From the NCBI GenBank assembly GCA_001916035.1, contig MNRQ01000020.1, positions 5,819-69,818 on the forward strand: a DNA stretch of 64,000 bases, read 5' to 3'. The DNA comes from Clostridium sp. 27_14 (GTDB lineage Bacteria > Bacillota > Clostridia > TANB77 > CAG-508). The notes beneath the pieces are model-generated. The model was not told the origin of the DNA and did no database searches. It saw nothing but the letters and a program-made list of their open reading frames with translations. Shown piece after piece: positions 8,199 through 53,572 of the stretch (position 1 is the stretch's first letter; the number at the start of each line of letters is the position of its first letter). A program made the translations under genes and the position numbers.

Positions 8199-8834
8199 TT
8201 ATATTTTTTCTTTTTTCCAATATTCTTTTACTAATTCATCTAAATATTTTATATAAATATTCTCTTCTTTTATTTTTTCTATTACTTTTGTATCTGTACC
8301 TTTAAAATATGCAATCCATTGCTCTTGTTTTGACATTTTTTTATCATTATTAATTTTAAATTTGTGTAATTCTACGATATGCGTTTCCGCATTTTCTTCA
8401 CTAAAATCTATTGACTTAAACTTATTTAAAAATTCTATTTTATGATACTCCAAAGTTTGATAATACGTAAAATCTAAGATATTAATAGTAATTGTCTTAG
8501 CTATTTTTCTTTGATCTTCATAATAAATTTGATTTGAATGAACAAATAAATAATATAATGCTATCTTTTTCTGAATATGTTTACCATCTACAAATTGTAT
8601 TCCTATGTTAAACTCTTCTCCTTTTTTAGTCATTACTCTAACATCAACTACTCCCATTTTTTGATATGCAGGAATATATTTTTCAAGAATATCTATATAA
8701 CTATTCAGACTTATTTTTTGTATATCTATTTCCAATATACTTTGTATCATGTCTTTTATTATATTTGTATAGTTTTCATTAGATAGTACTTTTTTTAATA
8801 CATAATTTCTATTACAAACTAATTCTTGATTCAT
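8199..8834 (-). CDS. PD-(D/E)XK nuclease-family transposase-like protein (PDDEXK_2/Rpn-like)
   Basis: The pattern ...GVVDVRVMTKKGEEFNIGIQFVD...KKIALYY...TITINILDF resembles the PDDEXK_2 core. The usual acidic residue before Q appears replaced (NIGIQ). Confidence 0.4.
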   Translation of the reverse strand: MNQELVCNRNYVLKKVLSNENYTNIIKDMIQSILEIDIQKISLNSYIDILEKYIPAYQKMGVVDVRVMTKKGEEFNIGIQFVDGKHIQKKIALYYLFVHSNQIYYEDQRKIAKTITINILDFTYYQTLEYHKIEFLNKFKSIDFSEENAETHIVELHKFKINNDKKMSKQEQWIAYFKGTDTKVIEKIKEENIYIKYLDELVKEYWKKEKI

Positions 8835-9107
8835 TATTTTATGCTTATGTACCTCCTCTCTAAAATTATTTTCTTTCTTCTGTTAATGTGGATTTTTTTA
8901 GATTTAAAAATTTGAAATAAAAAATTTGGAATTATAATTCTTAAATTCAGTATAACGAGTCAAAATTTATTTGTCAACCAAATTTACTTTATTTTTTGAC
9001 TTTTCATCGCAATATTCGACATTTTAAGACCTCTATTGTTTTAGTTCACCTTCCATATTTTGGTACTTATGTGTTTATATTGTCTTTCAAGTATCACTTA
9101 AAACAAC

Positions 9108-9256
9108 TAAACAAAAGCAAACATTAATAGTAGCATTTGTACTATTTAAAACATTAAAAATCCGCATTTTTGTTCGTGAGCAAAATTCACAAAACAAATT
9201 TCTGTGCCTTTTTATATTTTATATTATAGGAAAGTTCAAAGAACTTTCCTATAATA
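9108..9256 (+). repeat. multi-hairpin intergenic repeat, diverged full copy (modules 1-2-3)
   Basis: aaacaaaagcaaacattaatag...tccgcatttttgttcg / gagcaaaattcacaaaacaaatttctgtgc / atattataggaaagttcaaagaactttcctataatat. Aligns with the copies at 33381, 44710 and 29165. Confidence 0.8.
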
Positions 9257-9306
9257 TAAAATATAAATCTGGTTGAAAATTAGCTTTTCAACCAGATTTA
9301 CTTCAC

Positions 9307-9573
9307 TTAAACATAAAGCAAATCACATAAATGTGAAATAGCTTTATACTTTTCCTTTGGCAAATAATATTCCATATCAAGCTTTAATTCTGAAAAATCT
9401 GTTTCTGATGGATTAATTCCTTTATCTTCTGCCCATTCATCAAATACCTGCAATATAGTAATTTCTTTTATTGCCATTCTACTAATAGCATATTTAAGAA
9501 ATTCATTAAGATACTGCCATTTTCCAGCTCTTCTTCCATCAATAATTATCTGCCGCATTAATCTTTCGTCCAT
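9307..9573 (-). CDS. hypothetical protein (88 aa)
   Basis: ORF followed by hairpin 9266-9300. No recognisable motif. Contains an in-frame CGG at 9553-9555. Confidence 0.4.
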   Translation of the reverse strand: MDERLMRQIIIDGRRAGKWQYLNEFLKYAISRMAIKEITILQVFDEWAEDKGINPSETDFSELKLDMEYYLPKEKYKAISHLCDLLYV

Positions 9574-9690
9574 TTTTTGTTCCTCTTTTCTTTAGATTTC
9601 TCTTTGAAAATATTCAAAGAGTTATAATATATTTTTTTATTACAAATATATTATAACTCTAAAAATCAAAAATGTCAATTTTTGGTAATA

Positions 9691-10425
9691 CTATTCTGTT
9701 GCAATATAATAACCTACTCCTCTTTTAGTAATTAAAATTTTCGGTGCTGATGTATCTGTCTCAATCTTTTCTCTTATTCTTCTTACAGTAACATCTACAG
9801 TTCTAATATCACCATAATATTCATATCCCCACACTTTTTCAAGTAATATTTCTCTCGTTGTAACTTGACCAGGTTGACTTGCTAAGAATTTTAATACCTC
9901 AAATTCTCTAAGTGTTAAATCAATTACTTTTCCTCTTACCTTCACTTCAAATCTATCTAAATCTAATTCCAAATCACCTACTATTATTTTATTAGCTTTA
10001 GTCTTAGGCTTTTCTGTTTCAGTAATTTCATTTGTTTGTTGATCTAAAGTCACATCTGCTTTTCTAATATTGGCCTTGACTCTAGCAATTAACTCTCTTA
10101 CACTAAATGGTTTTGTGATATAATCATCAGCACCGAGTTCTAATCCTACTATTTTATCAACTTCCTCATCTTTTGCCGTCAATATAACTATTGGTATATT
10201 AACAACACTTTTTACTCTTTGGCATACTGTTAAACCATCCATTTTTGGTAACATTATATCTAGCATTATCAAATTTGGTCTTTCCTTTAAAGCCATTTCT
10301 AATCCTGTTTGCCCATCTTTAGCCTCTATTGTTCTATAACCTTCTTTTAACAAATTAAATTTTAAAACATCTATTATAGCCTGTTCATCATCTACTATTA
10401 AAACTGTTTTTACATCCTTGTTCAT
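9691..10425 (-). CDS. OmpR/PhoB-family response regulator, with no cognate kinase in the window
   Basis: Receiver domain VLIVDDEQ...MLDIMLPKMDG...ILTAKD and a winged-helix C-terminus LTLREFEVLKFL...TVDVTVRRIREKIE...ITKRGVGY. Start set at MNKDVK. Confidence 0.85.
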   Translation of the reverse strand: MNKDVKTVLIVDDEQAIIDVLKFNLLKEGYRTIEAKDGQTGLEMALKERPNLIMLDIMLPKMDGLTVCQRVKSVVNIPIVILTAKDEEVDKIVGLELGADDYITKPFSVRELIARVKANIRKADVTLDQQTNEITETEKPKTKANKIIVGDLELDLDRFEVKVRGKVIDLTLREFEVLKFLASQPGQVTTREILLEKVWGYEYYGDIRTVDVTVRRIREKIETDTSAPKILITKRGVGYYIATE

Positions 10426-10540
10426 ATTTTCCACAAAAACTCCGCCCTTTCGTAGTTTTATTTCAAATATATTTATATCACAATTCTTACATTTACACAA
10501 GTGTTTTTTTGATTTTTAAATCATTTTTAGCCGAAAAATC

Positions 10541-13500
10541 TTAACTCAAAAACACCTCTACATTTATAACACCAGCATTTTCTTGAAGCCTAATCTCATT
10601 AGAACTTTGCTCTTTACCATCAATAACTACTTTCTTAACACCTATTTCATTCCCATTTGGATTTTCAACTAATATATTATAAAGTGTATTTTTCCATTTA
10701 TATCTTACAGAAAAAGTTTTCCAATCTTTAGGTATACATGGATTAATTTTTAAAATTCCTTTCTCTATTTTTATTCCTAATATATATTCTACTCCAGCTT
10801 TATAATACCAACAAGATGAACCTGTATACCATGTCCAGCCACCTCTTCCTGCCAAATTTCCTGCACCATAAATATCTGCTGGCATTACATAAGGTTCTAC
10901 TTTATATTTTTTTGCCATCTCTTTTGTTCTAGCATGTTCTATCGGATTTATCATTTTATATAGCTCAAATGCCTTTTCACCAAAGCCTAACATAGCCTCT
11001 GCAATAACTACCCAACAACTTGCATGTGTATACTGGCCTCCATTTTCTCTTACTCCAGGCAAATACGCTTTTATATATCCAGGTTCTAATTTACCTTTTT
11101 CAAATGGTGGATCTAACAATTTTATTATTCCATTTTCTTTATCAACAAGATGATTTTCCAAACTTTCCATTGATATATATCTCTTATCATTATCACCCGC
11201 ATTTGATATTATTGACCAACTTTGCGCTATACTATCTATTCTACATTCCTCATTTTCCATACTTCCAAGTACTTGACCATCATCTGTAAATGCTCTTTTA
11301 TACCATCTACCATCCCAACCACTAGTATTTAAAGCTCTCCTTAATTCTTGTTTTATTTTTTTATATCTTTCAACTCTATCAAAATCACCATTTTCTTCTA
11401 CTATTTTTATAAATCTATCTAATATATTATATAAGAAAAATCCAAGCCATACACTTTCACCTTTGCCCTTATTACCAACTTCGCTCATTCCATCATTCCA
11501 GTCTCCTGAACCAATTCTAGGTAATCCATGCTCTCCAAAATTTAATGCTTTCTCTATTGCTTTTACACAATGTTCATATATCGTCCCCATTTTTTCACTT
11601 TCAATATATCTATCATATCTCTCATCTATCCCTTGTTCCAATATTTGACCTTTTAAATAGGGCGTTTCAATATCTAAAATTTGATTATCTCCAGTAAAAT
11701 CCATATACTCTAATGTAGCATACACAAGCCATAACAAATCATCAGAAAATCTTGTTCTTATACCTCTTTTAGTTTCATCATGCCACCAATGTTCTACATC
11801 TCCTTCTTCAAATTGATGTTTACTATGTTTTATTATCTGTTGTTTTAAATATTCTGAATCCACATATTTTAAACAAAACGTATCTTGTAATTGATCTCTA
11901 AAACCATACGCTCCACCTGATTGATAATATCCCGTTTTTCCCAATAATCTACTCGATATTGTTTGATATAATGTCCAACCATTAAGCATTATATTTATTG
12001 ATTCTATTGGTGTATATACTTGTAATTTTTCTAATTTATCTTTCCACTCACTTTTTATAATTTCTAATTCTTGTTTGCAATTCTGAATCTTACTATATTT
12101 ATACGCAATATTCTTACTATCTAAAATACTTTCCTCTGCTCCTAACAATATAGAAATTTCTTTTTCTCCAAAACTTTCTATTTCCACTTCTATTTGATAA
12201 ACAGCACAACTACTTTTTCCTAAACTTCCTATGTTATTCAACATTACTTTTCTTATTCCATTTGGATTTTCAATTCCACCATTTCCAAAAAAGAATTTTT
12301 TATCACCTGTATAAGATTTTATTTTTTCACTACTCGACATATAAACAACTTCTCTAAAATCACTATTATACAAATTTTCCGCAATTAACACATTATTATT
12401 TTTGTCATATTTCAAATTTATATATTCTGTTATTTTTTGTTCATCTTCTCCTATAACAAGTTTGTTATAATAATAAATCTTTAATTTTTTTCTGTTTGGC
12501 GTAGTATTTTTCAAATGTAATATTTGAACCTTTATACTATCCTCTTTTGGCACAAATACATCTAATACCTGCTCAATTCCATTACTTTTATGAATATATT
12601 TTGCATATCCAAATCCATAAACAACATCATACTCATTATTATCTGGCATCGGATTCAACCCCAAAGACCATACTTTTTTAGTTTCCTCATCTTTTAAATA
12701 TATAGCCTCTGATGGTATATCATAATTTGGCATATTAGCCCATGAAGTTATACGATTTAACCTACTATTTTTATACCACGTATATCCACCCATATTTTCT
12801 GTAACCAATGTTCCAAATTTTTTATTTGCCAATATATGTGACCATACTGTAGGTAATCTATTCTTCCTATTTAATTTTATTAAATATTCTTTTCCGTCAC
12901 TTGAAAAAGCACCATACTCATTAAAATATTTCAAATCATCATCAATTTTAAAAAAACTATTATTTTCTATTTTTTCCTCTTTTATCACAATTGAGCTTTC
13001 TTCATCTTCTAAAACTTCTGTTTTTTCAAAGTACTCTTCTTCTATATCGCTTATTGCATTTTTTAAACTTCCTTTATTACTATCAATTATCACTGTAGCA
13101 ACAAATTCTAATAATTCCATATCTTTTTTATCTATTTCATTTTTATTAAGTTGGAATATACCACCTCTTATATTTTTTAAATATGCTAAATGTGAATTTA
13201 ACACTATATTTTCCATTTCTTCTCTTACATAATTTTCATAACTATGTTTTTCTTCATCAATTAACACTAATTCCACTTCTACTTTTTTTATTCTAAAAAA
13301 CTCAAATGCTTTTAATATTTGTTTAATAACATCAGAATCATTCAAGTCTTTTACTTTTACCAAAATTATTGGCAAATCTCCTGATATTCCATATTTCCAC
13401 AATTCACTTTGTTCATACATTTTCTTAGGCAATTTATCTAGTTGAGATTTTTTACTTGGATTATCAAAAATAATATAAGATAATAATTTTTGATATTGTT

Positions 13501-28355: not shown

Positions 28356-28382
28356 ATATTTTTATACATTATTATTTATTTG

Positions 28383-28458
28383 TACGCGAAATTTGTTAAA
28401 CCAAATTTCGCATTTTTAATATTATAGGAATGTTCATCGAACTTCCTATAATATTAAA
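28383..28458 (+). repeat. partial copy of the intergenic repeat (modules 2-3)
   Basis: cgcgaaatttgttaaaccaaatttcgc hairpin followed by the tattataggaatgttcatcgaacttcctataata hairpin. Confidence 0.7.
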
Positions 28459-28489
28459 TCTAACAATACACACTAACCCAATCTCTCTT

Positions 28490-29119: not shown

Positions 29120-29164
29120 AAACAAAGAACTCTTAATTATATTTTATATATTAATAAAATTGCA

Positions 29165-29272
29165 GAACAAAAGCGGACATTAATAACATTTGCACTTATT
29201 TAGACATTTTAAAGTCCGCGTCTTTGTTCGTGCGCGAAAATTTATGAAATAAATTTTCTGTGCATTGTTATT
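29165..29272 (+). repeat. intergenic repeat copy (modules 1-2)
   Basis: gaacaaaagcggacattaataacatttgcacttatttagacattttaaagtccgcgtctttgttcgtgcgcgaaaatttatgaaataaattttctgtgcattgttat. Near-identical to 33381-33490. Confidence 0.85.
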
Positions 29273-29305
29273 TTTGATTTATACTTTCAAATTTTAACAT
29301 TTATT

Positions 29306-33263: not shown

Positions 33264-33380
33264 TTTTCTTCTCCTTATTTTATTATATTCATTTTTTGAA
33301 AGTACTTTTCCTAATATAACATATTTTTCTTTTTTTGTCAAATTTGCCTTGTTGAAGTACACATAAAATGTATATAAAAA

Positions 33381-33530
33381 GAACAAAAGCGGACATTAAT
33401 AGCATTTGCACTATTTAGAACATTTTAAAGTCCGCGTCTTTGTTCGCGCGCGAAAATTTATGAAATAAATTTTCTGTGCATTGTTATATGTAATATTCTA
33501 GGAAGTTCAGAGAACTTTCCTAGAATATTA
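33381..33530 (+). repeat. intergenic repeat, full copy (modules 1-2-3)
   Basis: Reference copy. Long imperfect hairpin gaacaaaagcggac...gtccgcgtctttgttc, then hairpin gcgcgaaaattta...taaattttctgtgc, then hairpin tattctaggaagttc agag aactttcctagaata. Confidence 0.85.
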
Positions 33531-33586
33531 CAATATCGTAAAATTATTAACATTAAATCCTTTATTAATAATTTTACGATTACACA

Positions 33587-42909: not shown

Positions 42910-42995
42910 GACGTCCAATAATGAGGTTACCATTGAAAAAATTACTACTCACAATTTTTCAATTAATTATACCTCGGGAAAGGAATGGTGTAATA

Positions 42996-44710
42996 ATGAA
43001 TGATTACAGAACACACAAATGTGATGAAATTAGCCTTTCAGATATAGGCAAAAAAGTTAAAATATCAGGTTGGGTTCAAACAATTCGTGATTTAGGAGGG
43101 TTAGTTTTCTTAGACATAAGAGATATGTACGGAATTACACAAGTTGTAACTTCAGGAAAAGCAGAAGATGTTGATTTTGCTTCACATATTCCATTAGAAT
43201 CTACTGTTACAGTATATGGCGAAGTCAAAAAACGTGACGAAGAAACTATCAACACAAAACTAAAAACAGGATTAGTTGAAATTAGAATTGAAGAAATCAC
43301 TATTTTAGGAAAAAGAACAAAAAATCTACCTTTTGAAATTAACACAAAACAAGACATTAGAGAAGATTTACGCTTACAATATCGTTATTTAGATTTAAGA
43401 AGCGAAAGATTAAAAAATAATCTTATCTTAAGAAGTAAGGTTATACAATATTTAAGAAATCAAATGATTGAACAAGGATTTTTAGAGGTTCAAACTCCAA
43501 TACTAACAAGTTCTTCACCAGAAGGAGCCAGAGATTACCTAGTTCCTAGCAGATTACATCCTGGAAAATTTTACGCTTTACCACAAGCACCACAACAATT
43601 TAAACAATTACTAATGGTTTCTGGTATTGATAAATATTTTCAAGTAGCACCATGTTTTAGAGATGAAGATGCACGTGCAGATAGAGCTCCTGGTGAATTT
43701 TATCAATTAGACATGGAAATGAGTTTTGCAACTCAAGAAGATGTTTTTAATGTAATGGAACCTGTTATGTATAATACTTTTAAAAAATTCTCTGACAAAA
43801 AAATTGCTAATTATCCATTTCCAAGAATCACATATAAAGAAGCAATGTTAAAATACGGTTCAGATAAACCTGATTTAAGAAATCCTTTATATATTATAGA
43901 CCTATCTGACTTTTTCAAAAAATGTACTTTTAAACCATTTATCAACAGAACTGTCAGAGCTATAAAAGTAGAAGGTCACATGTCAAAAGGATTTCATGAA
44001 AAAATGCTTGATTATGCAAAGTCTATTGGAATGGCCGGTCTAGGATATTTAGAGGTTCAAGAAGACATGAGTTTTAAAGGTCCAATTGATAAATTTATAC
44101 CTGACAATCTAAAGCAAAGTCTGATCACTTTAGCCGATTTACACAAAAATGACACTATTTTCTTTATAGCAGATAATGAAAAAAGAGCCACAGAACTTGC
44201 CGGACAAATAAGAATGGAACTAGGTAAAAGATTAGAGCTAATAGATAATAATGTTTTCCAATTCTGTTGGATAATAGACTTTCCAATGTTTGAATTAGAC
44301 GAACATGACAATCATTTTCAATGCCACAAGGAGGATTAGACGCTCTAGAAAATCAAAATCCTTTAGACATTTTAGCATATCAATATGACATTGTTTGTAA
44401 CGGTATTGAACTATCTTCTGGTGCAGTTCGTAACCATGACATAAACATTATGCTAAAAGCCTTTACAATGGCAGGATATACTGAAGAAGAAGTAAAAACT
44501 AAATTTGGCGCTTTATACACAGCATTTCAATTTGGTGCACCACCACACGCTGGAATCGCCCCTGGTATTGACAGAATGTTAATGCTATTATCTAATTCAG
44601 AAACTATCAGAGAAGTAATAGCATTCCCTCTTAACAGTAAAGCCGAAGACCTAATGATGGGAGCACCAGGAAATGTCAGACGTGACCAATTGCGTGATGT
44701 ACACATATAG
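42996..44710 (+). CDS. aspS: aspartate--tRNA ligase (bacterial type), split by a -1 frameshift
   Basis: OB-fold N-terminus, motif [21 protein letters not shown], then after the shift [12 protein letters not shown]...[18 protein letters not shown]...[14 protein letters not shown]. Junction near aatcattttca at 44310-44320. Start reset to MNDYRTHKC because the longer ORF overlaps the T-box terminator. Confidence 0.85.
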
Positions 44711-44857
44711 AACAAAAGCGGACATTAATAGCATTGGCACTTATTAAAACATTTTAAAGTCCGCGTCTTTGTTCGTGCGCGAAATTTGCAAAGCAAATAT
44801 CGCGGCATTGTTATTTTTAATATTCTAGGAAGTTCGGAGAACTTTCCTAGAATATTA
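44710..44857 (+). repeat. intergenic repeat, full copy (modules 1-2-3), starting at the last base of the aspS stop codon
   Basis: gaacaaaagcggacattaatagcattggcac...gtccgcgtctttgttcgtgcgcgaaatttgcaaagcaaatatcgcggc...tattctaggaagttcggagaactttcctagaata. Confidence 0.85.
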
Positions 44858-44916
44858 TAAAAGAGGGTTCTCTTCAAAGAAAGCCCTCTTCATATATTTA
44901 TATGTTATTTATTTTC

Positions 44917-45413: not shown

Positions 45414-47052
45414 TTAATAAATTTTCATTTTCTCTAAAATTCCATATATTTTGTTACCACTAGGTAACTGTAAAATTTCCTCCTTTGAAAAAACTCTTAA
45501 AGCAACTATAGCTAAAACATATATTATTACTGCAACAATTATTGCTATTAGTGTAGCCAATTTTTTAGCAATTATACCAATTAATACAGAATATGTAAAA
45601 TATGAACAAATTCCCATAATAGTTACAGCAACAAGTGGTTTTATTAAAATCTTTGAAATTGGTAAATTAAGTTTAATATTTTTTCTTAATGCTGTACTAG
45701 CTATTGTAAAAGCTACAACATGACATACTACAGATGCCCACGCTGCCCCACAAGCTCCAAAAGCTGGGTTTGGAACTAATATCAAATTTAAAACCAATTT
45801 TGCAAGTACTCCGGCACCCAAACGCCACCGTTGGTACCATTAATTTTCCATATCCTTGTAATGCTCCATTTATTGTTTGATCTAATATTGTAAATATTAT
45901 TGTTAAAGAACTTATTTGTAATATTGCTTCACCAGCACTTGCATTTGGAAACAATAAACTTAAAATTGGTCCTGCAAATATAAACATTCCAACAGTACAT
46001 GGTAACCCTATTAACATTGATATTAATAATGAAAAAGATGTTTTTTCCGTTATAGTCTTTTTGTCTTTTCTAGCCTTTGCTGCAGATATTGCTGGTACTA
46101 ATGCTGTAGAAAATGCTACATTTATTGAAAGTGGCAAACTTGTAAGCATATCAACTTTACCACCCAAAATTCCATATTGTACCAAAGCCTCATCTTCTGT
46201 CATAAATTGTTTTAAACTTCTTACTACAGTAAAAGAATCTATATTCTTATTTAATGATGACATTATTGCTGTTAAAGCTATTGGAGTTGAAACTAATAAA
46301 ACTTTTTTTATAATACTTTTTACTTTTTCATATTTATAATTTACTGTTGATTTTATCTCTCTTGCCCTTTCCATTTTTTCTGTTTGGTAGTACATATATA
46401 AATATCCAAAACCTGCAAAAGTAGCAAGTGTTGTTGCAAGTGTTGCACCTGCTGCCATCCATTCTGTTGAAACATGTGATATTATTGCAACTATCTCAAC
46501 TATAATTATTGTTAAAACTGTTTTAAAAATTTGTTCTAAAGTCTGTGATCTTGCTGTAGCCTTCAATTCTTGTCTACCATTAAAATATCCTCTCATAACA
46601 GATGCTATTGCTACAAAAAATATAGCAGGTGATAATGCAACCAAAGTCATTTCTGCTTCTGGTATTTGCAACCAACTATATGCTATTACATGTGCACCTA
46701 AAAATAGTAATAGGCTACCTACTAATCCAATCACTGCAAATGTTGCAAATGCTACTTTAAATATTCTATAAGCACCTCTATGGTCTCCTATTGCTACTTT
46801 TTCTGATACTAATTTTGATATTGCATTTGGCACTCCTATTGATGATATTGTCAACAGCATTGCATATATTTGATAACTACTTGATACTATTCCATTTCCT
46901 TTGTCCCCAAAGCCTTCTCTATTTGTTAAATAAAGTGTATATACCATTCCTAATAATTTTATTAAAACTTGCGAAAACATCAAGGTTATTACACCTTGTA
47001 AAAAACCTTGTTTGTTTGTTTTTTCCGATTGTTTATTTCTTACTTTTGTCAT
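45414..47052 (-). CDS. MOP-superfamily flippase (SpoVB/MurJ-like polysaccharide biosynthesis protein), split by a +1 frameshift at an in-frame CGG
   Basis: GFLQGVITLMFSQVLIKLLGMVYTLYLTN...ISSIGVPNAISKLVSE is typical of SpoVB-type flippases, with ~14 TM segments. ORFs 45697-47052 and 45414-45821 join at 45811-45813. Confidence 0.7.
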
Positions 47053-47190
47053 TTACTCCCTCCTTTTCCATTTAAACTACTTTTTATCTTACTATTCATT
47101 TTATGCAAGTTTTTTCTTATAATAGTATTTTATATTATAAATTCAAAAAAATTTTTTATCAATAGTTTTAACCAATTTTCCAAAAAAATA

Positions 47191-47325
47191 TTGACAAATG
47201 CTGATTTTTGTAATAAAATATGTAAACGTAAAACAGTTTGAAACTTAAAACCAAAAGTTTCTCCCCGGTAACTTTGGCAATAAGTTCATATAAAATTTAA
47301 GGTTAATAGGAGGGTATTATCAATC
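47191..47325 (+). promoter_or_regulatory. promoter and structured leader of the rplM-rpsI operon (possible L13-type ribosomal-protein leader)
   Basis: TTGACA (47191-47196), 17 nt, TAAAAT (47214-47219). The ~100-nt leader contains hairpin gaaactt...aagtttc (about 47240-47262) before the GGAGGG RBS. Confidence 0.45.
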
Positions 47326-47763
47326 ATGAATAATACAACATATAGCGCTAAAAAAGGCGAAGTAGAAAGCAAATGGTATATTATTGATGCAGCTGAAAAA
47401 CCATTAGGTAGAGTTGCTACAGAAGCTGCTAAATTATTAAGAGGAAAACACAAACCAACATTTACACCAAACATTGATACAGGTGATCACGTTATCATAA
47501 TCAATTGTAAAGATGTAAAATTAACAGGAAATAAAATGGACCAAAAAATTTACAGACATCATTCAGGATACATTGGTGGAATGAAAGAAGTTCCAGCTAG
47601 AGTTATGTTAGAAAAAACTCCTGAAAAAGCTATGATGTTAGCTGTTAAAGGTATGTTACCACACAACTCTTTAGGTAGAACACAACTAAAAAAATTAAGA
47701 GTTTATGCTGGTAGTGAACATCAAAACCAAGCACAAAAACCAGAAATATGGGAGGTTAAATAA
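47326..47763 (+). CDS. rplM: 50S ribosomal protein L13
   Basis: [32 protein letters not shown], 145 aa. Confidence 0.95.
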
Positions 47764-47765
47764 AA

Positions 47766-48167
47766 ATGGCTAAAACAGAAAATATTGTTTATTATGGTAC
47801 AGGTAGAAGAAAATCTTCTGTAGCAAGAGTAAGATTAGTAGAAGGTTCTGGAAAAATCACAATAAATGGAAAAGATATTGATGAATTTTTCGGATTAGAA
47901 ACTTTAAAAGTTATTGTTAAACAACCTTTAACTGTTACAAATACAACAACTAAATATGATGTAATTTGTACTGTAAAAGGTGGCGGATTTACAGGTCAAG
48001 CTGGAGCTATACGTCATGGTATTGCAAGAGCTTTAAATGAAGCTAATATAGAATACAGACCAGCTTTAAAATCAAATGGATTCTTAACAAGAGATCCACG
48101 TATGAAAGAAAGAAAAAAATACGGTCTTAAAAAAGCTCGTAAAGCTCCACAATTTAGCAAGAGATAA
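47766..48167 (+). CDS. rpsI: 30S ribosomal protein S9
   Basis: [16 protein letters not shown]...[19 protein letters not shown]...[18 protein letters not shown]. Confidence 0.95.
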
Positions 48168-48192
48168 AAAGAGCTTTTATCAAAATCAATTC

Positions 48193-48229
48193 AACCTCAG
48201 AAGTTTCAAGACTTCCGAGGTTTTTTATT
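48193..48229 (+). terminator. rpsI terminator, also the left copy of the 37-bp direct repeat (attL-like)
   Basis: aacctcagaagtttcaagacttccgaggttttttatt: hairpin cctcggaagt/acttccgagg plus a T-run. Identical to 53573-53609. Confidence 0.85.
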
Positions 48230-48560
48230 GCTGTTCGGTAATTTTTACTTTCAAACGTCTGCAAGCATTGAAATATCAATGTTTTTATTTTTATATTTGT
48301 TTGCACTTTAAATTTGTAATATACAAGTAATATGCTAGTAATATACAAATTTATTTTTTATAGTCATAATTTATCTAAAACGCACAAAAAACTAACTATG
48401 CCTCTTTATTATTTTTGGCATAATTAGCTTTGTATTTCTTAATACAACAAATCGTTATTTAAATAGATTGTAATTTATCGGTGAGGTTATCATTATTTAA
48501 AATTTTGTAAAAACGCCAACTCTTTAATAAAGAATTGGCGTTTTTAGCATCACTTATGTT

Positions 48561-49988
48561 TTACTTTTTTGCTTTTTTGAAAACTTGGCTCTCTTTAATC
48601 CAGGGTGCTAAAACTACGATTTTATCCTCTGTATCTAAATCAATATACATAGGAGCATTAATGTAAACTTGTTCTCCTTTAGTAGCTTGATTCATATACA
48701 CTGGATCATAGCATTCCACTTTTACTAATCCATAATGCTTGTTATAGACAGTATAATACGTTGGCCATAAGAAAGCATTACTTGAGTCCACTACTTCAGC
48801 ATCCGAACAGAAAGTTTCGAGTTTATGGAGTCTACGGTTTTCCTGCATTTCTAGATAATTGTTTCCCAAAATTGGTTGCATCCAAAATCTTCTGCCTTTT
48901 ATTAGTCCTACTGTTCTATTGCATTCTTGTTCTAACATTTCATCTAATGTGTCGAATGATGCATATTTTTTTCTTCTTGAAAAAATTAGGCTTAAATCTG
49001 CTTTATCATATAATTTAATAAAACGATTTTCTTTTAAAAGTCTAAAATTTTTTTGAAGTTTTTTAATAGATTCAATTCCTTTAACAACAATATCAATATC
49101 AGAATTTTCTTGATATCCTTCAATCAGGATGCTTCCTTCAATTCCAATATCATCTAGAGCAATCCCTAACTCAGTTATCATAATGCTAATTATCAATTTA
49201 GTATCTCTTAAAATTGCTTCATCTCCATCATATTGATAAAGTTCTTTTGCTTTATCAAATGGATTATAAATCCTTTCAATTTCGCTTACATCAAATAAGC
49301 ATAGTTCTTCTCCAAACCTATTCACTTTTCCAACCTGTGTATTTGTAAAAAGTTTTGAATATAAAATAGATTCTTCAATTGAGTTGTTTCTTCCATAATA
49401 ATATCCATTGATAACTCTTGAATCTCTTTCTGTAGCATCAACACGGAAATACTTAGGAATTCCAATAACTTTTCCTGATTCATCATAGCAATGTTCTGAC
49501 ACTGTATGGCAAATTGTACCATCTTTCAACTTAAAATAATACGGAAAATTTATCAACTCCTCAATACTTTCAACGTTATATAATTGCTTAACTTCAAAAT
49601 ACAATCTGTTTGCATTAGAGGAATGAATAGTATTCTTTAAAATACTTAATCCATACTTTTTTCTAAGAGTACCTTCAACACTAGAAGATGGATTTGTTGC
49701 TCCGACAAAATCATTAAACCGATTTACAGCATTAGATGCTTTTATAAGGAAAAAAACCGAAATTCCTGATGTCATATAGCTTAATAACTCCAGAAAATAT
49801 GGTTGTTCTTTACTTTCATGATACAGCACACATACATCATCTACAGTAAGCCGTTTTTGAACAAAGTTGGTAGTTTCAAATCCCTCTTTTTGAATATCCT
49901 TGATAATATTATCAACAATATTTCTTTCATAAGCATCAGGTTTCAATACACACAAAGTTACATTGTCTTCAATTCTTGCATTATACAT
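48561..49988 (-). CDS. fusion protein: nucleoside-diphosphate-kinase domain + unknown middle domain + Pol-beta/MNT-type nucleotidyltransferase-like domain with a beta-rich C-terminus
   Basis: The NDK region TLCVLKPDAYERNIV...LYHESKEQPYFLELLSYMTSGISVFFL...FVGATNPSSSVEGTLRKKYG...NTIHSSNA keeps the catalytic His context (N.IH.S). The NTase-like motif is GIEGSILIEGYQENSDIDIVV (G-S...D-x-D). Start reset to MYNARIEDN (ATG 49988) behind a GGAGG RBS. Confidence 0.6.
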   Translation of the reverse strand: MYNARIEDNVTLCVLKPDAYERNIVDNIIKDIQKEGFETTNFVQKRLTVDDVCVLYHESKEQPYFLELLSYMTSGISVFFLIKASNAVNRFNDFVGATNPSSSVEGTLRKKYGLSILKNTIHSSNANRLYFEVKQLYNVESIEELINFPYYFKLKDGTICHTVSEHCYDESGKVIGIPKYFRVDATERDSRVINGYYYGRNNSIEESILYSKLFTNTQVGKVNRFGEELCLFDVSEIERIYNPFDKAKELYQYDGDEAILRDTKLIISIMITELGIALDDIGIEGSILIEGYQENSDIDIVVKGIESIKKLQKNFRLLKENRFIKLYDKADLSLIFSRRKKYASFDTLDEMLEQECNRTVGLIKGRRFWMQPILGNNYLEMQENRRLHKLETFCSDAEVVDSSNAFLWPTYYTVYNKHYGLVKVECYDPVYMNQATKGEQVYINAPMYIDLDTEDKIVVLAPWIKESQVFKKAKK

Positions 49989-50106
49989 AATGATACCTCC
50001 ATTTAATTGTGATAAAAGAATCCCTTTATCTAAACTAAGTAACCTACAGAAGAAATTATACCATCTCTTATATATCTTTGTCAATACATTATGTAAACAT
50101 TAGCTT

Positions 50107-51497
50107 TTATATAAATATTCCTTTTGTATCTGATAATCCAACAATTTCATTATAAGGACTTGTATAAATCTTTTCATTATTACAATAATCGATTACCTGA
50201 TCTAAATTATTAATAATTTTCTTAAACCCCTCTATATATAAGTCAACTATATCAGGATTAGTTAGATAAAACGGTGCTGAACTTGTATCTCCTATAGCAA
50301 AAGTATTATCTATTACTGCTAATGTATTGTCATGGTTAATATCCGAATAATTTTGTCTATATAAATCTATATACTCTTCATTAAATAACCAAGGATATAA
50401 TTTTGATTTATCTTGACTAAATACTTGTTGAAAAATTGGTTGTTTATAAACTGGATGAGTTTGGTATAATCTTGTTGTTAATCCTTCTTCTTTTAATATA
50501 TTCATAATTAATTTTCTAAATTTTCCAGTATTTTTTATATTTAAGTCTGATGTATTGCAAGATATTCTATATAAATGATATACATGTTCATATCCTTTTT
50601 CTATTATTGGTGGTACTAAAAAATCTGTTTTATTAATTAAAAAATCTGTTAATTTATTTGCATTATTTTTAATTTTGCTTATTGTTGTGTTAAAATGTTC
50701 TAATTGATATTTTAGAAAAATGCAATTTAATGCACTAGGTTTATAATTATAACCATATGTAAATGAATTATAATAAAAATTATAATCTCCCTCTATTATT
50801 TTTTGTGCATATGTTTTTACAGAATTTGCATTATTAAATAAGTCCACGTTATTTGTACAAATTCCTCCTAGTTCACCACATGAAGCTAATTGCTTTACTG
50901 GCATAAAACTAAAACATCCTACATCTCCATATGTTCCAACATATTTATCATCAATTTTTGCTCCAAATGCTTGAGCACAATCCTCAATCAACTTTATATT
51001 ATAGTCATCAGCAATTTTTCTAATTTTTTTAAGATTACAAGGATATCCTTGCATATGTACTGCAATTATAGCTTTTACTTTTTTAAATTTATTTAATAAT
51101 TTAATGACATTATTTTCGTCTATATTGTATGTATCTGGCTTTATATCAGCAAATATTGGTATAGCTCCAACCCTTAATACTTGGAATGCAGGAGCAGCAA
51201 AAGTCCATGATGGTACAATAACTTCATCTCCATATGTAACATTACATGCTATTAATGCAGAATGTATTGCAGAGGCTCCTGAATCAAAAAAAGAAAAATA
51301 TTTCGTATGCAAGAAATTTGACATATCATTTTCAATTTCTGAAATTTTATCATTTTTATTGGATACAAATTCTCGTGAACTTAAATATTCATTTAATATT
51401 TCCATATTTTCTACTTTGGGTGGCCATACACTTCTAAAATCATTTACATTATCGCAAATTTTTTTGACTCTTTGTTAAAAAATACTAAATCATTCAT
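50107..51497 (-). CDS. DegT/DnrJ/EryC1/StrS-family PLP-dependent aminotransferase. The N-terminal ~30 codons are reachable only through a -1 shift in an A7 run.
   Basis: SGASAIHSALIACNVTYGDEVIVPSWTFAAPA...IAVHMQGYPCN...IEDCAQAFGA...GCFSFMPVKQLASCGELGG (active-site Lys context FSF..K). The upstream ATG at 51497 has a GGAG RBS and reads MNDLVFFNKESKK, then joins the main frame at the T7/A7 run 51459-51465. The ORF track shows only 50107-51405. Confidence 0.7.
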
Positions 51498-51541
51498 AAT
51501 CTTTTTCTCCATTATTATATTTTTTATTTTAATATATCAAA

Positions 51542-51964
51542 CTATAAATAGTTAAAAATTTGTGCTGGATATAAAATCAATTCTTTATTTTTAAATTTAT
51601 CAATATCTACCCATACTGCCTCAGTTTCTATACCATCATCTAGCAAGTCATATTTTTGTTGATAATCTTTATCATTAATATATGCCTCATAAAATAATAT
51701 TAGTTCATGTGCATCTTTTCCTTTATAATTAAATATATTTTCCGAAATCCCTAAAAAATCACCAAGCTCTATTTCTATATTTATTTCTTCCTTAAATTCT
51801 CTTTTTAATGCATCTTCACTTCTTTCAAGAAATTCTATCCCTCCACCTAAGCATCGATAAAACTCTTGATTTTTTGATTTGTCATATCCTTTACTAACTA
51901 ATAATTTATTGCCTTTTCTTACTACTCCAAGAACTATAGGTCTAATTTCTTTAAACTTATCCAT
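51542..51964 (-). CDS. Nudix hydrolase
   Basis: Nudix box GGGIEFLERSEDALKREFKEEINIE (Gx5Ex7REUxEExGU). Own promoter TTGTAA-17-TATAAT and an AAGGAGAAAG RBS. Confidence 0.8.
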   Translation of the reverse strand: MDKFKEIRPIVLGVVRKGNKLLVSKGYDKSKNQEFYRCLGGGIEFLERSEDALKREFKEEINIEIELGDFLGISENIFNYKGKDAHELILFYEAYINDKDYQQKYDLLDDGIETEAVWVDIDKFKNKELILYPAQIFNYL

Positions 51965-52065
51965 ATAAATCTTTCTCCTTCTTACTAAAATATGTATAAT
52001 TATACCATTTTATCTATAAGATTACAATTATTTTTTTATTTATTCTATTCTTAGTATTATACTAT

Positions 52066-52818
52066 TTATGTAATATATTTCCTATGTGAATTTTTAACAT
52101 TATTTTGATTAACCATTGCATATTCCATTGTTGTATCTATTTTTATATGCCCTAATAATTTTTGTACTTGTTCTATAGGCATTCCTTTATCAATAGCCAT
52201 CGTTGCCATTGTTCTTCTAAATTTGTGTGGATGCACCTTGTTTATATTTGCTTGTTTTCCTAAATTTCTAATAGCAATTTCAATCCCTGATATTCCTAAT
52301 CTATTATAAGGTTTTATTAATGACACAAATAATGCTTCGTTGTTATCAATTCTTGTTTTTAAATATTTCTCTATATACATTTTACTCTTTGCACTAAAAT
52401 AGACTTCTCTTTCACTATTACCTTTACCTAAAACAATACAACTTCTTTCTTGAAAGTTCATATCTGATATCTTCTAACTGGACTTTTTACAATATAATCC
52501 TCATTTTCTAACCAAGCAAAGAAACTTGATAATGTTCTTCTTATATTATCTATTGTTACCGTACCAACTTTTGAATTACCTTTATAATCAGCTAAATAGT
52601 TTCTTAATATTTCAGTAGTAATTTCACCTATTAGAAGATTTATTGTATCTAACATTTTGGTTATATTATCTTTATAGTAATTTAAAGTTCTAGTAGAACA
52701 TCCTTAAATTTCTTTTGAAGATATAAATTTGTTTAATATATCAGTATTATTCTTTAGTTATTGTATAAAAAATCTTCTGTTGCATTAATTACTTTTTCTA
52801 CAAATAATTCTCCCATGA
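52066..52818 (-). pseudogene. tyrosine recombinase/integrase remnant (multiple stops and frameshifts)
   Basis: C-terminal catalytic region HPHKFRRTMATMAID...LLGHIKIDTTMEYA (HxxR, LGH, Y). The N-terminal core-binding piece LRNYLADYKGNSKVGTVTIDNIRRTLSSFFAWL is in another frame. The GGAGG-ATG start at 52818 is followed by in-frame stops. Confidence 0.75.
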
Positions 52819-53045
52819 CAATTACCTCCTTACATTTTTTTGATAGTTTGCAGTATATAGAACTCTATCTATATTATACAATATTTAATTGACATAATAA
52901 AAGATGAGCATATTCTATATACCCATCTAAATGTTTATATTTTTGTTCAAATTTCAAAATCAATCTCAGCGACAAATTACTATTTATTTATTATAACTTA
53001 ATATTTTTCTTGACTTTTTATCTTTAAATAGCTTATAATAAATAT

Positions 53046-53138
53046 AGGAAATGACAAATCCACAAACGTGGTTTTGCCGAATTAAGTTTGAAAAAACTCA
53101 CACCTAACTCGCCAAAGTTACAGATGTGAGCTTTTTTT
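53046..53138 (+). ncRNA. predicted ~90-nt antisense small RNA (candidate type I antitoxin)
   Basis: Near-consensus promoter TTGACT (53010-53015), 18 nt, TATAAT (53034-39). The transcript would end at the bidirectional terminator ctcacacct...agatgtgag plus T7 (53097-53138). It overlaps the stop codon and 3' end of the convergent small ORF. Confidence 0.35.
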
Positions 53139-53256
53139 ATTTATGTAGTTGCTTGTCAACCCAGTTCTTGTACAGAACTGCTGTCAAGGCAACGTTTAAT
53201 GTTAAAGAAAACATTAAGGATAATATTAAAAATAGTATTACTTTAATCATAAACAT
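53137..53256 (-). CDS. 39-aa hydrophobic peptide, candidate type I toxin
   Basis: Own translation: MFMIKVILFLILSLMFSLTLNVALTAVLYKNWVDKQLHK (one TM plus a charged tail). RBS GGAGAGGTGG. Promoter TAGACA-17-TAGAAT on the minus strand (53362-53334). Terminator shared with the convergent RNA. Confidence 0.45.
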   Translation of the reverse strand: MFMIKVILFLILSLMFSLTLNVALTAVLYKNWVDKQLHK

Positions 53257-53572
53257 CACCACCTCTCCTACGATATTTCGCAAAATTCAGGTGGCAAAAC
53301 CACATCTGTTTCTCATCATTTCCTATGTTAATTATTCTACAGTATTATTTAAAATTTGTCTATAATATTAATAAATTTTTATAATCTATTTTTGTTTATA
53401 AATTCATAAATCTTATTCTTAATATGGCTATTTCCCAAATAATAAAATCTAATAAGAGTTATTTAAAATTATAATGTAATAATCTTATAAATACAAAAAT
53501 GTCATTTTTTATTGAAAAATCAACCTTTGTAATTTACAAAAAGATAATATATTTTTTATACAAAAGCTATTA

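Follow-up and report, generated by a model that had tools for sequence, protein, structure and literature searches.

A mobile DegT, NDK and nucleotidyltransferase gene module of gut Clostridia and environmental bacteria with a possible role in the synthesis of a nucleotide-linked amine

A stretch of 64,000 nucleotides (nt) from Clostridium sp. 27_14 (contig MNRQ01000020.1, positions 5,819 to 69,818; the whole stretch is referred to below as the window) was analyzed for a cluster of three genes that a first-pass annotation, made from the letters alone, had put forward as a candidate undescribed cassette. The window has a G+C content of about 27% and a Clostridia-like composition. The open reading frames (ORFs) of the cluster were indeed found on the minus strand at the positions given by that annotation, all co-oriented, and encode, in gene order, a Nudix hydrolase, a DegT-family aminotransferase, and a fusion of NDK with a nucleotidyltransferase; Pfam searches bore out the Nudix, DegT, and NDK domain calls. 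Comparison with related loci showed that the conserved unit is not the trio with the Nudix gene. It consists of the DegT aminotransferase, NDK, and the nucleotidyltransferase (hereafter the transferase), and the trio in the window is a reduced form of this module.

Related loci, numbered with the prefix L, were collected by looking up exact proteins and by scanning GTDB genomes and metagenomes and were annotated by BLAST against reference proteins and with Pfam. Synteny was counted over the 10 lineages with enough flanking DNA, whose transferases are 37 to 100% identical to that of the window. The genes for DegT, NDK, and the transferase were adjacent in all 10 lineages, NDK and the transferase being either fused or encoded by separate genes with a 4-bp stop/start overlap. 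The first-pass view of the three window genes as a unit thus stands for these enzymes and fails for the Nudix hydrolase: the cassette-type Nudix was present in 4 of the 10 lineages, all gut Clostridia, with or without a phosphodiesterase, and the more common partner was a protein resembling alanyl-tRNA synthetase (AlaRS) of 579 to 623 amino acids (aa), encoded in 6 of the 10 (L001; L002; L010/L053; L014; L033 and L034; L055-57). The window has no AlaRS-like gene. Other accessory genes encoded a nucleotide pyrophosphatase/phosphodiesterase (NPP)-type phosphodiesterase (Phosphodiest; two lineages), methyltransferases (two lineages), a helix-turn-helix (HTH) regulator together with an HD_4-TGS protein that lacks a synthetase domain (L001 and L034), and, in a Sphaerochaeta genome, a major facilitator superfamily (MFS) exporter together with an adenylation-thiolation (A-T) protein of the nonribosomal peptide synthetase (NRPS) type. 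All accessory hydrolases were nucleotide phosphohydrolases (Nudix, Phosphodiest, or HD_4 with TGS). No sugar dehydratase, glycosyltransferase, sugar nucleotidylyltransferase, or flippase gene was found in the cassette or in any related locus examined, and no oxidoreductase, of the Gfo/Idh/MocA type or other, was conserved across the loci; the sole one was a 232-aa short-chain dehydrogenase/reductase in the L002/L004 lineage.

The AlaRS-like proteins share about 45% identity with the region of Aquifex AlaRS responsible for catalysis and tRNA recognition. They keep the Arg, Asn, and Asp-x-Gly-x-Gly activation residues as well as the HxxxH and CxxxH editing zinc motifs, and they therefore represent a complete, minimal, editing-proficient AlaRS (mini-AlaRS). 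Seven of eight cassette AlaRS sequences carry Gly in place of the Trp before the catalytic Asn (canonical EIWN, here E-I/L-G-N), a change that might alter the amino-acid pocket or the sensitivity to inhibitors.

The DegT protein of the window matched DegT_DnrJ_EryC1 (PF01041) with 231 bits (E = 2.5e-68; Pfam cut-off, 19.8). The active-site Lys in the context FSF..K, which the first-pass annotation had singled out, is retained: the Lys of FSFMPVK aligns with the catalytic Lys of PDB 7b0d, and the pyridoxal 5'-phosphate (PLP) residues K207, D178, and Q181 (Lys, Asp, and Gln) are invariant across the subfamily to which the protein belongs. Compared with the NCBIfam equivalogs (PseC, LegC, WecE, DesI, ArnB, and RfbH), the DegT fell below every cut-off; the best-scoring models were PseC, LegC, and WecE, with PseC at 188 bits versus a cut-off of 423.5. 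The subfamily is discrete and comprises about 27 clusters at ≥266 bits and ≥41% identity, after which scores drop to 194 bits and 34% identity, the level of generic DegTs. Its members share a conserved, subfamily-specific C-terminal extension of about 100 aa, and those with high scores lie on the same contigs as the transferase; the subfamily is exclusive to loci with NDK and the transferase. By fusion, overlapping genes, and an exclusive subfamily, the conserved enzymes are functionally coupled, and they travel as a unit. In the window, the DegT gene is frameshifted by the loss of 1 base from a T8 run at about position 51458, relative to L030 and L012. The intact protein has 463 aa in L030, L021, and L022, and the 432-aa ORF that remains in the window lacks a near-invariant W-P motif.

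The NDK match was found on a 507-aa ORF (48561-50084 as listed), with the domain at ORF residues 43-159. A perfect promoter match at 50084-50055 indicates that the fusion gene starts at ATG 49988 and not at TTG 50084, the start taken in the first-pass annotation, and residue numbers below refer to the resulting protein of 475 aa. The match to NDK (PF00334) scored 99 bits (E = 2.6e-28; cut-off, 27), and the AlphaFold2 (AF2) model had a pLDDT of 92.5 for the whole fusion and of 87 for the C-terminal part alone. A Foldseek search with the whole fusion retrieved only NDKs, many of whose structures matched its N-terminal part (E = 1e-12; target-normalized TM-score, 0.82 to 0.92). HSSN (in NTIHSSN) aligns with HGSD, which places the catalytic His, and the KPDA Lys is present. 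Every copy, whether fused or stand-alone, conserves KPDA, LYHES, NR, GAT, GTLR, and KN, which hold the nucleotide-binding Lys, Tyr, Arg, Thr, Arg, and Asn. The score is below all NCBIfam equivalog cut-offs, and the domain is therefore a divergent NDK.

Residues 142-475 of the fusion gave no match in Pfam, NCBIfam, or PDB sequences. The motif GIEGS...SDIDIVV in this part is invariant and lies on predicted adjacent strands of an alpha/beta domain (281-284 and 298-303 in the AF2 model), and sampled family members scored 25 to 36 bits on Pfam NTP_transf_2 (cut-off, 21); no NCBIfam model matched family members. In Foldseek searches of PDB and BFVD, the C-terminal part retrieved nothing at E ≤1e-3 (best, 8e-3): matches to the palm of poly(A) polymerases were not significant (E = 0.03 to 0.09), and the C-terminal barrel gave partial matches to the oligonucleotide/oligosaccharide-binding (OB) folds of HIN, Teb1, IF1, SSB, and ExoVII (E = 0.008 to 0.1). 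The PADLOC model PDC-S09, a 98-aa MNT-like candidate, matched marginally (E = 2e-4 over 38 residues). D328, a candidate third carboxylate, is nearly invariant in the close family and not invariant in a wide alignment. On the motifs, the relatives that pass NTP_transf_2, and the partial fold matches, the earlier assignment to Pol-beta/MNT-type nucleotidyltransferases is right at the superfamily level. The protein is acidic, with an isoelectric point (pI) of about 5.3. Three leads on the C-terminal part were discarded: a PDB sequence search gave a chance coiled-coil match (E = 0.4), a PDB profile search with the wide family gave nonsignificant matches to FapR and Trm11 (E = about 0.05) and to kanamycin nucleotidyltransferase (E = 1.3), and a RelA/SpoT-like pyrophosphokinase role found neither a synthetase-domain match nor a fold match.

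The Nudix protein matched NUDIX (PF00293) with 42 bits (E = 8.7e-11; cut-off, 21) and reached no NCBIfam equivalog. Its Nudix box, which had been called intact, is present as G-x5-E-x7-REFKEE-I-N-I and departs from the consensus GX5EX7REUXEEXGU in the final Gly, which is replaced by Asn. The protein shows 46% full-length identity with its counterpart in the L007 cassette, is unrelated to a Nudix encoded near L002, and matched the PADLOC candidate single-gene model PDC-S07 (E = 5e-11).

Table 1. Positions of the cassette genes, their domains, and flanking features in the window
Feature	Position	Strand	Basis or remark
NDK::nucleotidyltransferase-OB fusion gene	48561..49988	-	475 aa, intact, identical to database protein P0001
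NDK domain, residues 1-141	49566..49988	-	Pfam, Foldseek, alignment
N-terminal beta-rich domain of C-terminal part, residues 142-255	49224..49565	-	Conserved C160, H161, C167, C230, GIPKYF motif; AF2
Pol-beta-type nucleotidyltransferase domain, residues 256-383	48840..49223	-	Invariant G282-x-E-G-S286 and S296-D-I-D299
C-terminal OB-fold-like beta-barrel, residues 384-475	48564..48839	-	AF2 secondary structure, partial Foldseek matches
DegT-subfamily aminotransferase gene	50107..51497 (full span); remaining ORF 50107-51405, 432 aa	-	Frameshifted
Cassette-type Nudix hydrolase	51542..51964	-	140 aa
Strain-variable cassette segment: three genes and integrase remnant	48477..52980	.	blastn comparison of the window with loci L024-L030 and L012
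Xer-like tyrosine recombinase remnant, split 131 + 65 aa	52066..52655	-	Pfam/NCBIfam, comparison with L012
Terminator-like hairpin and T-run	48508..48546	-	19-nt arms, 95% complementary, 15 nt 3' of fusion stop codon
Sigma-70-type promoter match, 12/12 (TTGACA-18-TATAAT, TG extension)	50055..50084	-	Upstream of fusion gene
Promoter-like site, 10/12 with TG	51999..52027	-	Upstream of Nudix; consensus match only; such sites not enriched versus shuffled sequence
rpsI terminator region, 79-nt direct repeat copy 1	48151..48229	+	Terminator-like site; in all strain variants
79-nt direct repeat copy 2	53531..53609	+	81% identical overall; last 37 nt identical

The transferase belongs to a much larger family. 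Searching 1.84 billion proteins with a profile of the family yielded about 890 cluster representatives, of which 449 had E ≤1e-10; most were archaeal proteins of about 340 aa annotated as "predicted nucleotidyltransferase" (Bathyarchaeia, Thermofilum, Hodarchaeota, and Methanomethylicia). The archaeal proteins have the same three-part architecture and motifs and were retrieved by a bacterial profile at E values of 1e-18 to 1e-31; they stand alone, with no conserved neighbors in the two contigs examined, and are only about 18 to 20% identical to the nearest bacterial outgroup clade, P0069. The C-terminal part of the fusion descends from this widespread, uncharacterized archaeal family. Two further relatives were seen. 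P0199 (505 aa, metagenomic) is a fusion of FolK-type HPPK with an archaeal-type nucleotidyltransferase, in which the phosphotransfer domain is positioned as in the NDK fusion. In locus L005 (6728-11758, GCA_964389605.1), an outgroup transferase (29% identical) is part of a separate five-gene set beside an integrase. Its four companions there are genes for a PLP decarboxylase, a Glycos_transf_3 (phosphoribosyltransferase-family) enzyme, a TrpRS/TyrRS-like protein of 323 aa, and a RibD_C reductase; this appears to be another undescribed module with the transferase as its basis.

The cassette is mobile, is found at different sites, and has frequently been inactivated. Conspecific contigs (identical RpsI, flanks 98 to 99% identical) shared the backbone of the window up to position 48476 and again from 52981 or 53385. 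Within this slot, the cassette was intact in L030, carried the DegT frameshift in L029, as in the window, and had a 304-bp deletion within the fusion gene in L028; L025, L026, L027, and L031 lacked the integrase and carried an allele of 83% identity from which three large segments were deleted. The deleted-type allele was present at at least 13 further similar places and made up most of the 24 contigs read. In L024 the same slot (8742-13127) held other cargo, a TehB-like methyltransferase and a radical SAM/SPASM enzyme adjoining an integrase of the same family and an IS110 transposase, which shows that the slot exchanges cargo between strains. L012, the GTDB representative, has the same cassette (99.5% identity) in a different flank; in L022 it lies between polC and pfk, and in L021 among recombinases and insertion sequence (IS) elements. 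The earlier placement of the genes on a mobile element was thus borne out.

The integrase reported next to the cassette is there as recombinase sequence and is a split pseudogene, with about 150 bp missing relative to L012; the same split was present in L028-L030, and the protein was intact (331 aa) in L012 and L021. Lesions of this kind were considered as assembly errors for all split genes; since independent assemblies share the integrase split and the DegT frameshift, these two are probably real. With a frameshifted DegT and a dead integrase, the copy in the window may be inactive. A 79-nt direct repeat formed by duplication of the rpsI terminator hairpin was present in every strain variant. 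As the repeats occur whatever the cargo, they bracket a slot and are not specific to this insertion, and they may mark where an earlier insertion recombined or left a scar; a 39-bp perfect direct repeat was likewise discarded as attL/attR of an island, since the repeats occur in strains with different or decayed cargo. The window thus contains neither an intact integrase nor insertion-specific attachment sites, as an active integrative element would. An Rfam scan of positions 47000-55000 and a tRNA search of the whole window gave no match, and accordingly there is no tRNA-gene attachment site and no riboswitch.

Searches of the literature, PADLOC, and NCBIfam yielded no description of this gene combination, in agreement with the first-pass annotation, which did not recognize it as a described system, and the literature yielded none of the transferase family. 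Known systems that resemble it in part are the puromycin-type pathways (pur, ata, and cst; adgA-E). In the pur and adg clusters, a DegT-type aminotransferase (Pur4) and a Nudix (Pur7) are used alongside a phosphatase, methyltransferase, and MFS exporter and a step that couples an amino acid (PMC9239236, PMC11641026). Like the module, these pathways place a DegT aminotransferase and a Nudix, matched at the family level only, in a compact, horizontally moving cluster, and extended versions of the module likewise gain phosphohydrolase, methyltransferase, MFS exporter, and amino-acid-activating proteins, with a nucleotide-derived antimetabolite as the expected product. In contrast to pur and adg, the module lacks a Pur10-type dehydrogenase, a Pur3-type phosphatase, and a Pur6-type synthetase, and it has an NPP-type phosphodiesterase in two lineages; its strictly conserved NDK and Pol-beta nucleotidyltransferase have no counterpart there, and its hosts are gut Clostridia and uncultured bacteria, whereas those of pur and adg are actinomycetes or Photorhabdus. 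In the ascamycin cluster, AcmD charges tRNA-Ala and confers self-resistance, and AcmF has lost activation residues (PMC12945691). The extra AlaRS of extended modules, also part of a nucleoside-type cluster, is catalytically complete like AcmD; the module has no AcmF-like truncated transferase (the Asn and Asp mutated in AcmF are kept) and no sulfamate or halogenation genes.

Resemblances of the single enzymes to other systems were more distant. The fold and PLP residues of the DegT match those of aminotransferases acting on nucleoside diphosphate (NDP)-sugars (PseC, WecE, QdtB, and perosamine synthase), a family that normally acts on a nucleotide-linked ketone; the module DegT is at most 34% identical to these, has the extra C-terminal extension of about 100 aa, and lacks glycan partners. 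MNT/MntA, MenT/AbiEii, and kanamycin nucleotidyltransferase have the G-S...D-x-D active-site motif in common with the transferase, and matches to such minimal or toxin-type Pol-beta enzymes were weak (PDC-S09, E = 2e-4; MntA, E = 5e-3 for a relative; kanamycin nucleotidyltransferase, E = 1.3), none being significant. The module transferase is much larger than MNT/MenT types, with flanking barrels and the NDK fusion, and has no HEPN or antitoxin partner. By analogy, the module would work most like small nucleoside-antimetabolite clusters with a copy of an aminoacyl-tRNA synthetase (aaRS).

We tentatively favor, as the most probable of several explanations and at odds well short of even, that the module makes a nucleotide-linked amine, by joining a nucleoside monophosphate (NMP) to a carbonyl metabolite that is then aminated by the DegT; we infer substrate, order of steps, product, and role. 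In such a pathway, NDK would supply or recycle the nucleoside triphosphate (NTP), the nucleotidyltransferase would join the NMP to a carbonyl-bearing metabolite (e.g., a ketose phosphate or hydroxy-ketone), giving a nucleotide-linked ketone, the class of substrate on which DegT enzymes act, and the DegT would convert this ketone to the amine, which could be a toxic antimetabolite or an activated precursor. A carbonyl that is already present in the substrate is the simplest assumption, since no oxidoreductase is conserved. The Nudix, phosphodiesterase, or HD hydrolase would cleave the nucleotide product, for self-protection or maturation, and the AlaRS copy, where present, might resist the product as a mimic of Ala-AMP, give an alanyl group to the new amine, or both. 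The nucleotide phosphohydrolase accessories, the recurrent AlaRS or NRPS A-T proteins, and the one exporter together suggest a nucleotide-derived antimetabolite with an acylatable amine, and the MFS exporter and NRPS A-T protein of Sphaerochaeta suggest an exported, acylated small molecule. The PLP decarboxylase of L005 counts in favor of an amine as well, being another amine-forming PLP enzyme paired with a transferase of this kind. Such a pathway would probably bear on tRNA-Ala or AlaRS. In the narrower version that it is an undescribed, mobile, oxidoreductase-free route to a nucleotide-linked amine or amino-nucleotide aimed at alanine charging or the tRNA 3' end, with a bacterial offshoot of the near-universal archaeal nucleotidyltransferase for the key step and a resistant mini-AlaRS as immunity, the proposal is possible and rather doubtful. 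The first-pass idea of a self-contained pathway that makes, transfers, and hydrolyzes a modified nucleotide leaves the source of the carbonyl substrate unexplained.

Several observations weigh against a pathway to a small nucleotide-linked amine. The OB fold and the N-terminal beta-domain are not explained by a small-molecule role, and the acceptor could be a nucleic acid; the TGS domain and the repeated aaRS association point towards tRNA. The need for NDK is only loosely explained, and the three-gene form has neither an exporter nor an AlaRS. The transferase domain of the window has no direct Pfam match, and the third catalytic carboxylate is not clearly conserved across the superfamily. Finally, the frequent decay within the species, in which most strains have decayed copies, shows that the module is dispensable there.

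Some of these observations would fit a role in which the transferase-OB protein adds a nucleotide, perhaps modified, to the 3' end of tRNA, probably tRNA-Ala, which the cassette AlaRS would charge or rescue, with TGS-HD reading or repairing the CCA end, the outcome being either a translation block (toxin or abortive) or tRNA repair. The Pol-beta fold with OB-like barrels (partial matches to IF1, SSB, Teb1, the anticodon-binding OB of LysRS, and the poly(A) polymerase palm) is consistent with this, as are a complete editing AlaRS in 6 of 10 lineages, the fusion of TGS, a known binder of the tRNA CCA end, to a SpoT-type hydrolase in two lineages, the TrpRS-like partner in the outgroup clade, and a parent family that is a near-universal, housekeeping-type archaeal protein. 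We nevertheless consider it unlikely: no significant structural match to a tRNA nucleotidyltransferase or MenT-type toxin was obtained (best Foldseek E value, 8e-3), the protein is acidic, neither the window nor the cassette has a tRNA gene, and the PLP aminotransferase would go unexplained unless an amino-nucleotide is made, which again calls for an oxidoreductase. The oxidoreductase also bears on an aminonucleotide or aminonucleoside antimetabolite like puromycin, A201A, cystocin, or 3'-amino-3'-deoxyguanosine (ADG), for which the DegT would aminate a keto-nucleotide and NDK would form the triphosphate, which would act as a chain terminator or mimic of GTP or ATP, with the Nudix hydrolyzing as Pur7 does and AlaRS or NRPS acylating the amine. 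The parts list indeed parallels the pur and adg clusters, and Ndk makes the triphosphate ADG-TP in target cells (PMC9239236). Yet the Pur10-type NAD-dependent nucleotide dehydrogenase is absent from every locus, Pur3-type and Pur6-type genes are lacking, the strictly conserved nucleotidyltransferase would have no role, and the DegT is ≤34% identical to other DegTs. The lack of a conserved oxidoreductase, in particular, argues that this is not a puromycin-type pathway, an explanation that we find unlikely and place below the tRNA-directed one.

The first-pass annotation had also called the cassette defense-like, and the module, if switched on by infection, could make a nucleotide-derived effector that halts replication of the phage or translation in the host; such a role concerns biological use and not chemistry. 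Viperin-type producers of chain terminators are analogous in logic to the module. Its slot adjoins a recombinase, varies between strains, and elsewhere holds different cargo; its movement between sites and frequent inactivation are as expected of costly defense genes, and the Nudix resembles the PADLOC candidate PDC-S07. Defense-like neighbors were found in two lineages only (a reverse transcriptase with a nuclease, a type ISP restriction enzyme, and an HTH/M78 pair at L002; an AAA_13 protein at L010), whereas most loci have housekeeping neighbors, e.g., polC/pfk or ychF/der/plsY. The core proteins matched no PADLOC defense system, the DegT giving no match and the transferase a marginal one; an IMG/VR scan of viral contigs found no relatives; no sensor component is evident in the three-gene form; and the Sphaerochaeta MFS exporter and NRPS point to a secreted metabolite. 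The defense-like label thus found no positive support, and we regard an anti-phage role as improbable. Far less probable still is an ordinary glycan or nucleotide-sugar function, in which the DegT would aminate an NDP-keto-sugar of the host (for O-antigen, S-layer, or teichoic acid) with incidental neighbors. DegT enzymes classically belong to such pathways, PseC, LegC, and WecE are the best NCBIfam models, and a MurJ/Polysacc_synt-type flippase gene lies 1.5 kb away (45414-47052). Against this, the NCBIfam scores are far under the cut-offs (PseC, 188 versus 423 bits), the DegT subfamily occurs only with NDK and the transferase, and the flippase gene is chromosomal backbone, separated from the cassette by rplM-rpsI and present also in strains with other cargo. 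A dehydratase, glycosyltransferase, sugar nucleotidylyltransferase, or flippase was absent from within every cassette examined, which indicates that this is not a glycan locus, as had been proposed from the window alone. The conserved genes are syntenic in many genomes and never part of glycan clusters, and the fusion keeps its catalytic residues; none of the outcomes that the first-pass annotation named as refuting its view was thus observed.

Further features were observed outside the cassette genes. The toxin-antitoxin (TA) module that had been placed next to them was not found as such; there is only a 48-aa, strongly hydrophobic ORF (53137-53283, minus strand), located between the 34-nt arms of an imperfect inverted repeat (53062-53095 and 53276-53309), without a Pfam or Rfam match. 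L024 has this segment, which L025 and L026 lack, and the ORF is possibly a type I toxin, maybe the one meant in the earlier note. The aspS gene (42921-44710) is split into ORFs of 472 and 129 aa. Compared with L029, the window lacks 19 bp at 44312 and 36 bp at about position 44700; the 19 bp are also missing by comparison with L030, and aspS is intact in L029 and L030 (589 and 591 aa). The 19-bp deletion is specific to the window and doubtful: the split may be due to misassembly or may be a genuine lesion, although the gene should be essential. The flippase gene (minus strand) is split into overlapping ORFs of 451 and 135 aa; the 451-aa gene is also called in other strains, and the split may be real. 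A YunB-like sporulation gene (53782-54568, minus strand) is apparently split into ORFs of 185 and 91 aa, with the Spore_YunB domain only on the latter. An intergenic repeat of about 150 nt with an internal palindrome occurs at 44707-44860, 33368-33533, 29164-29278, and 9110-9257 (75 to 87% identity between copies), and incompletely at 28375-28467 and 56138-56185. L026, L028, and L030 lack the copy downstream of aspS, and the element therefore appears mobile and similar to a miniature inverted-repeat transposable element (MITE).

Taken together, a tightly conserved mobile unit of three to four genes for which no description was found is carried by human-gut Clostridia and unrelated environmental bacteria. 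It may be a compact mobile nucleotide-antimetabolite cluster with a real chance of new chemistry, and the copy in the window is reduced and probably damaged. At its center is a transferase family with no solved structure and no assigned function, which includes a protein found across many archaeal phyla. A second, complete AlaRS that recurs in this way has elsewhere pointed to nucleoside antibiotics directed at aaRSs, such as ascamycin, and the small size of the cassette allows its direct heterologous expression, followed by metabolomics. Should the product prove to be a new nucleotide antimetabolite directed at translation or at polymerases, it would be a lead compound and a factor in competition or phage resistance among gut bacteria; if it targets alanine charging or the tRNA 3' end, the human gut microbiome would have yielded a new kind of antimetabolite chemistry, and the archaeal family would gain its first function.

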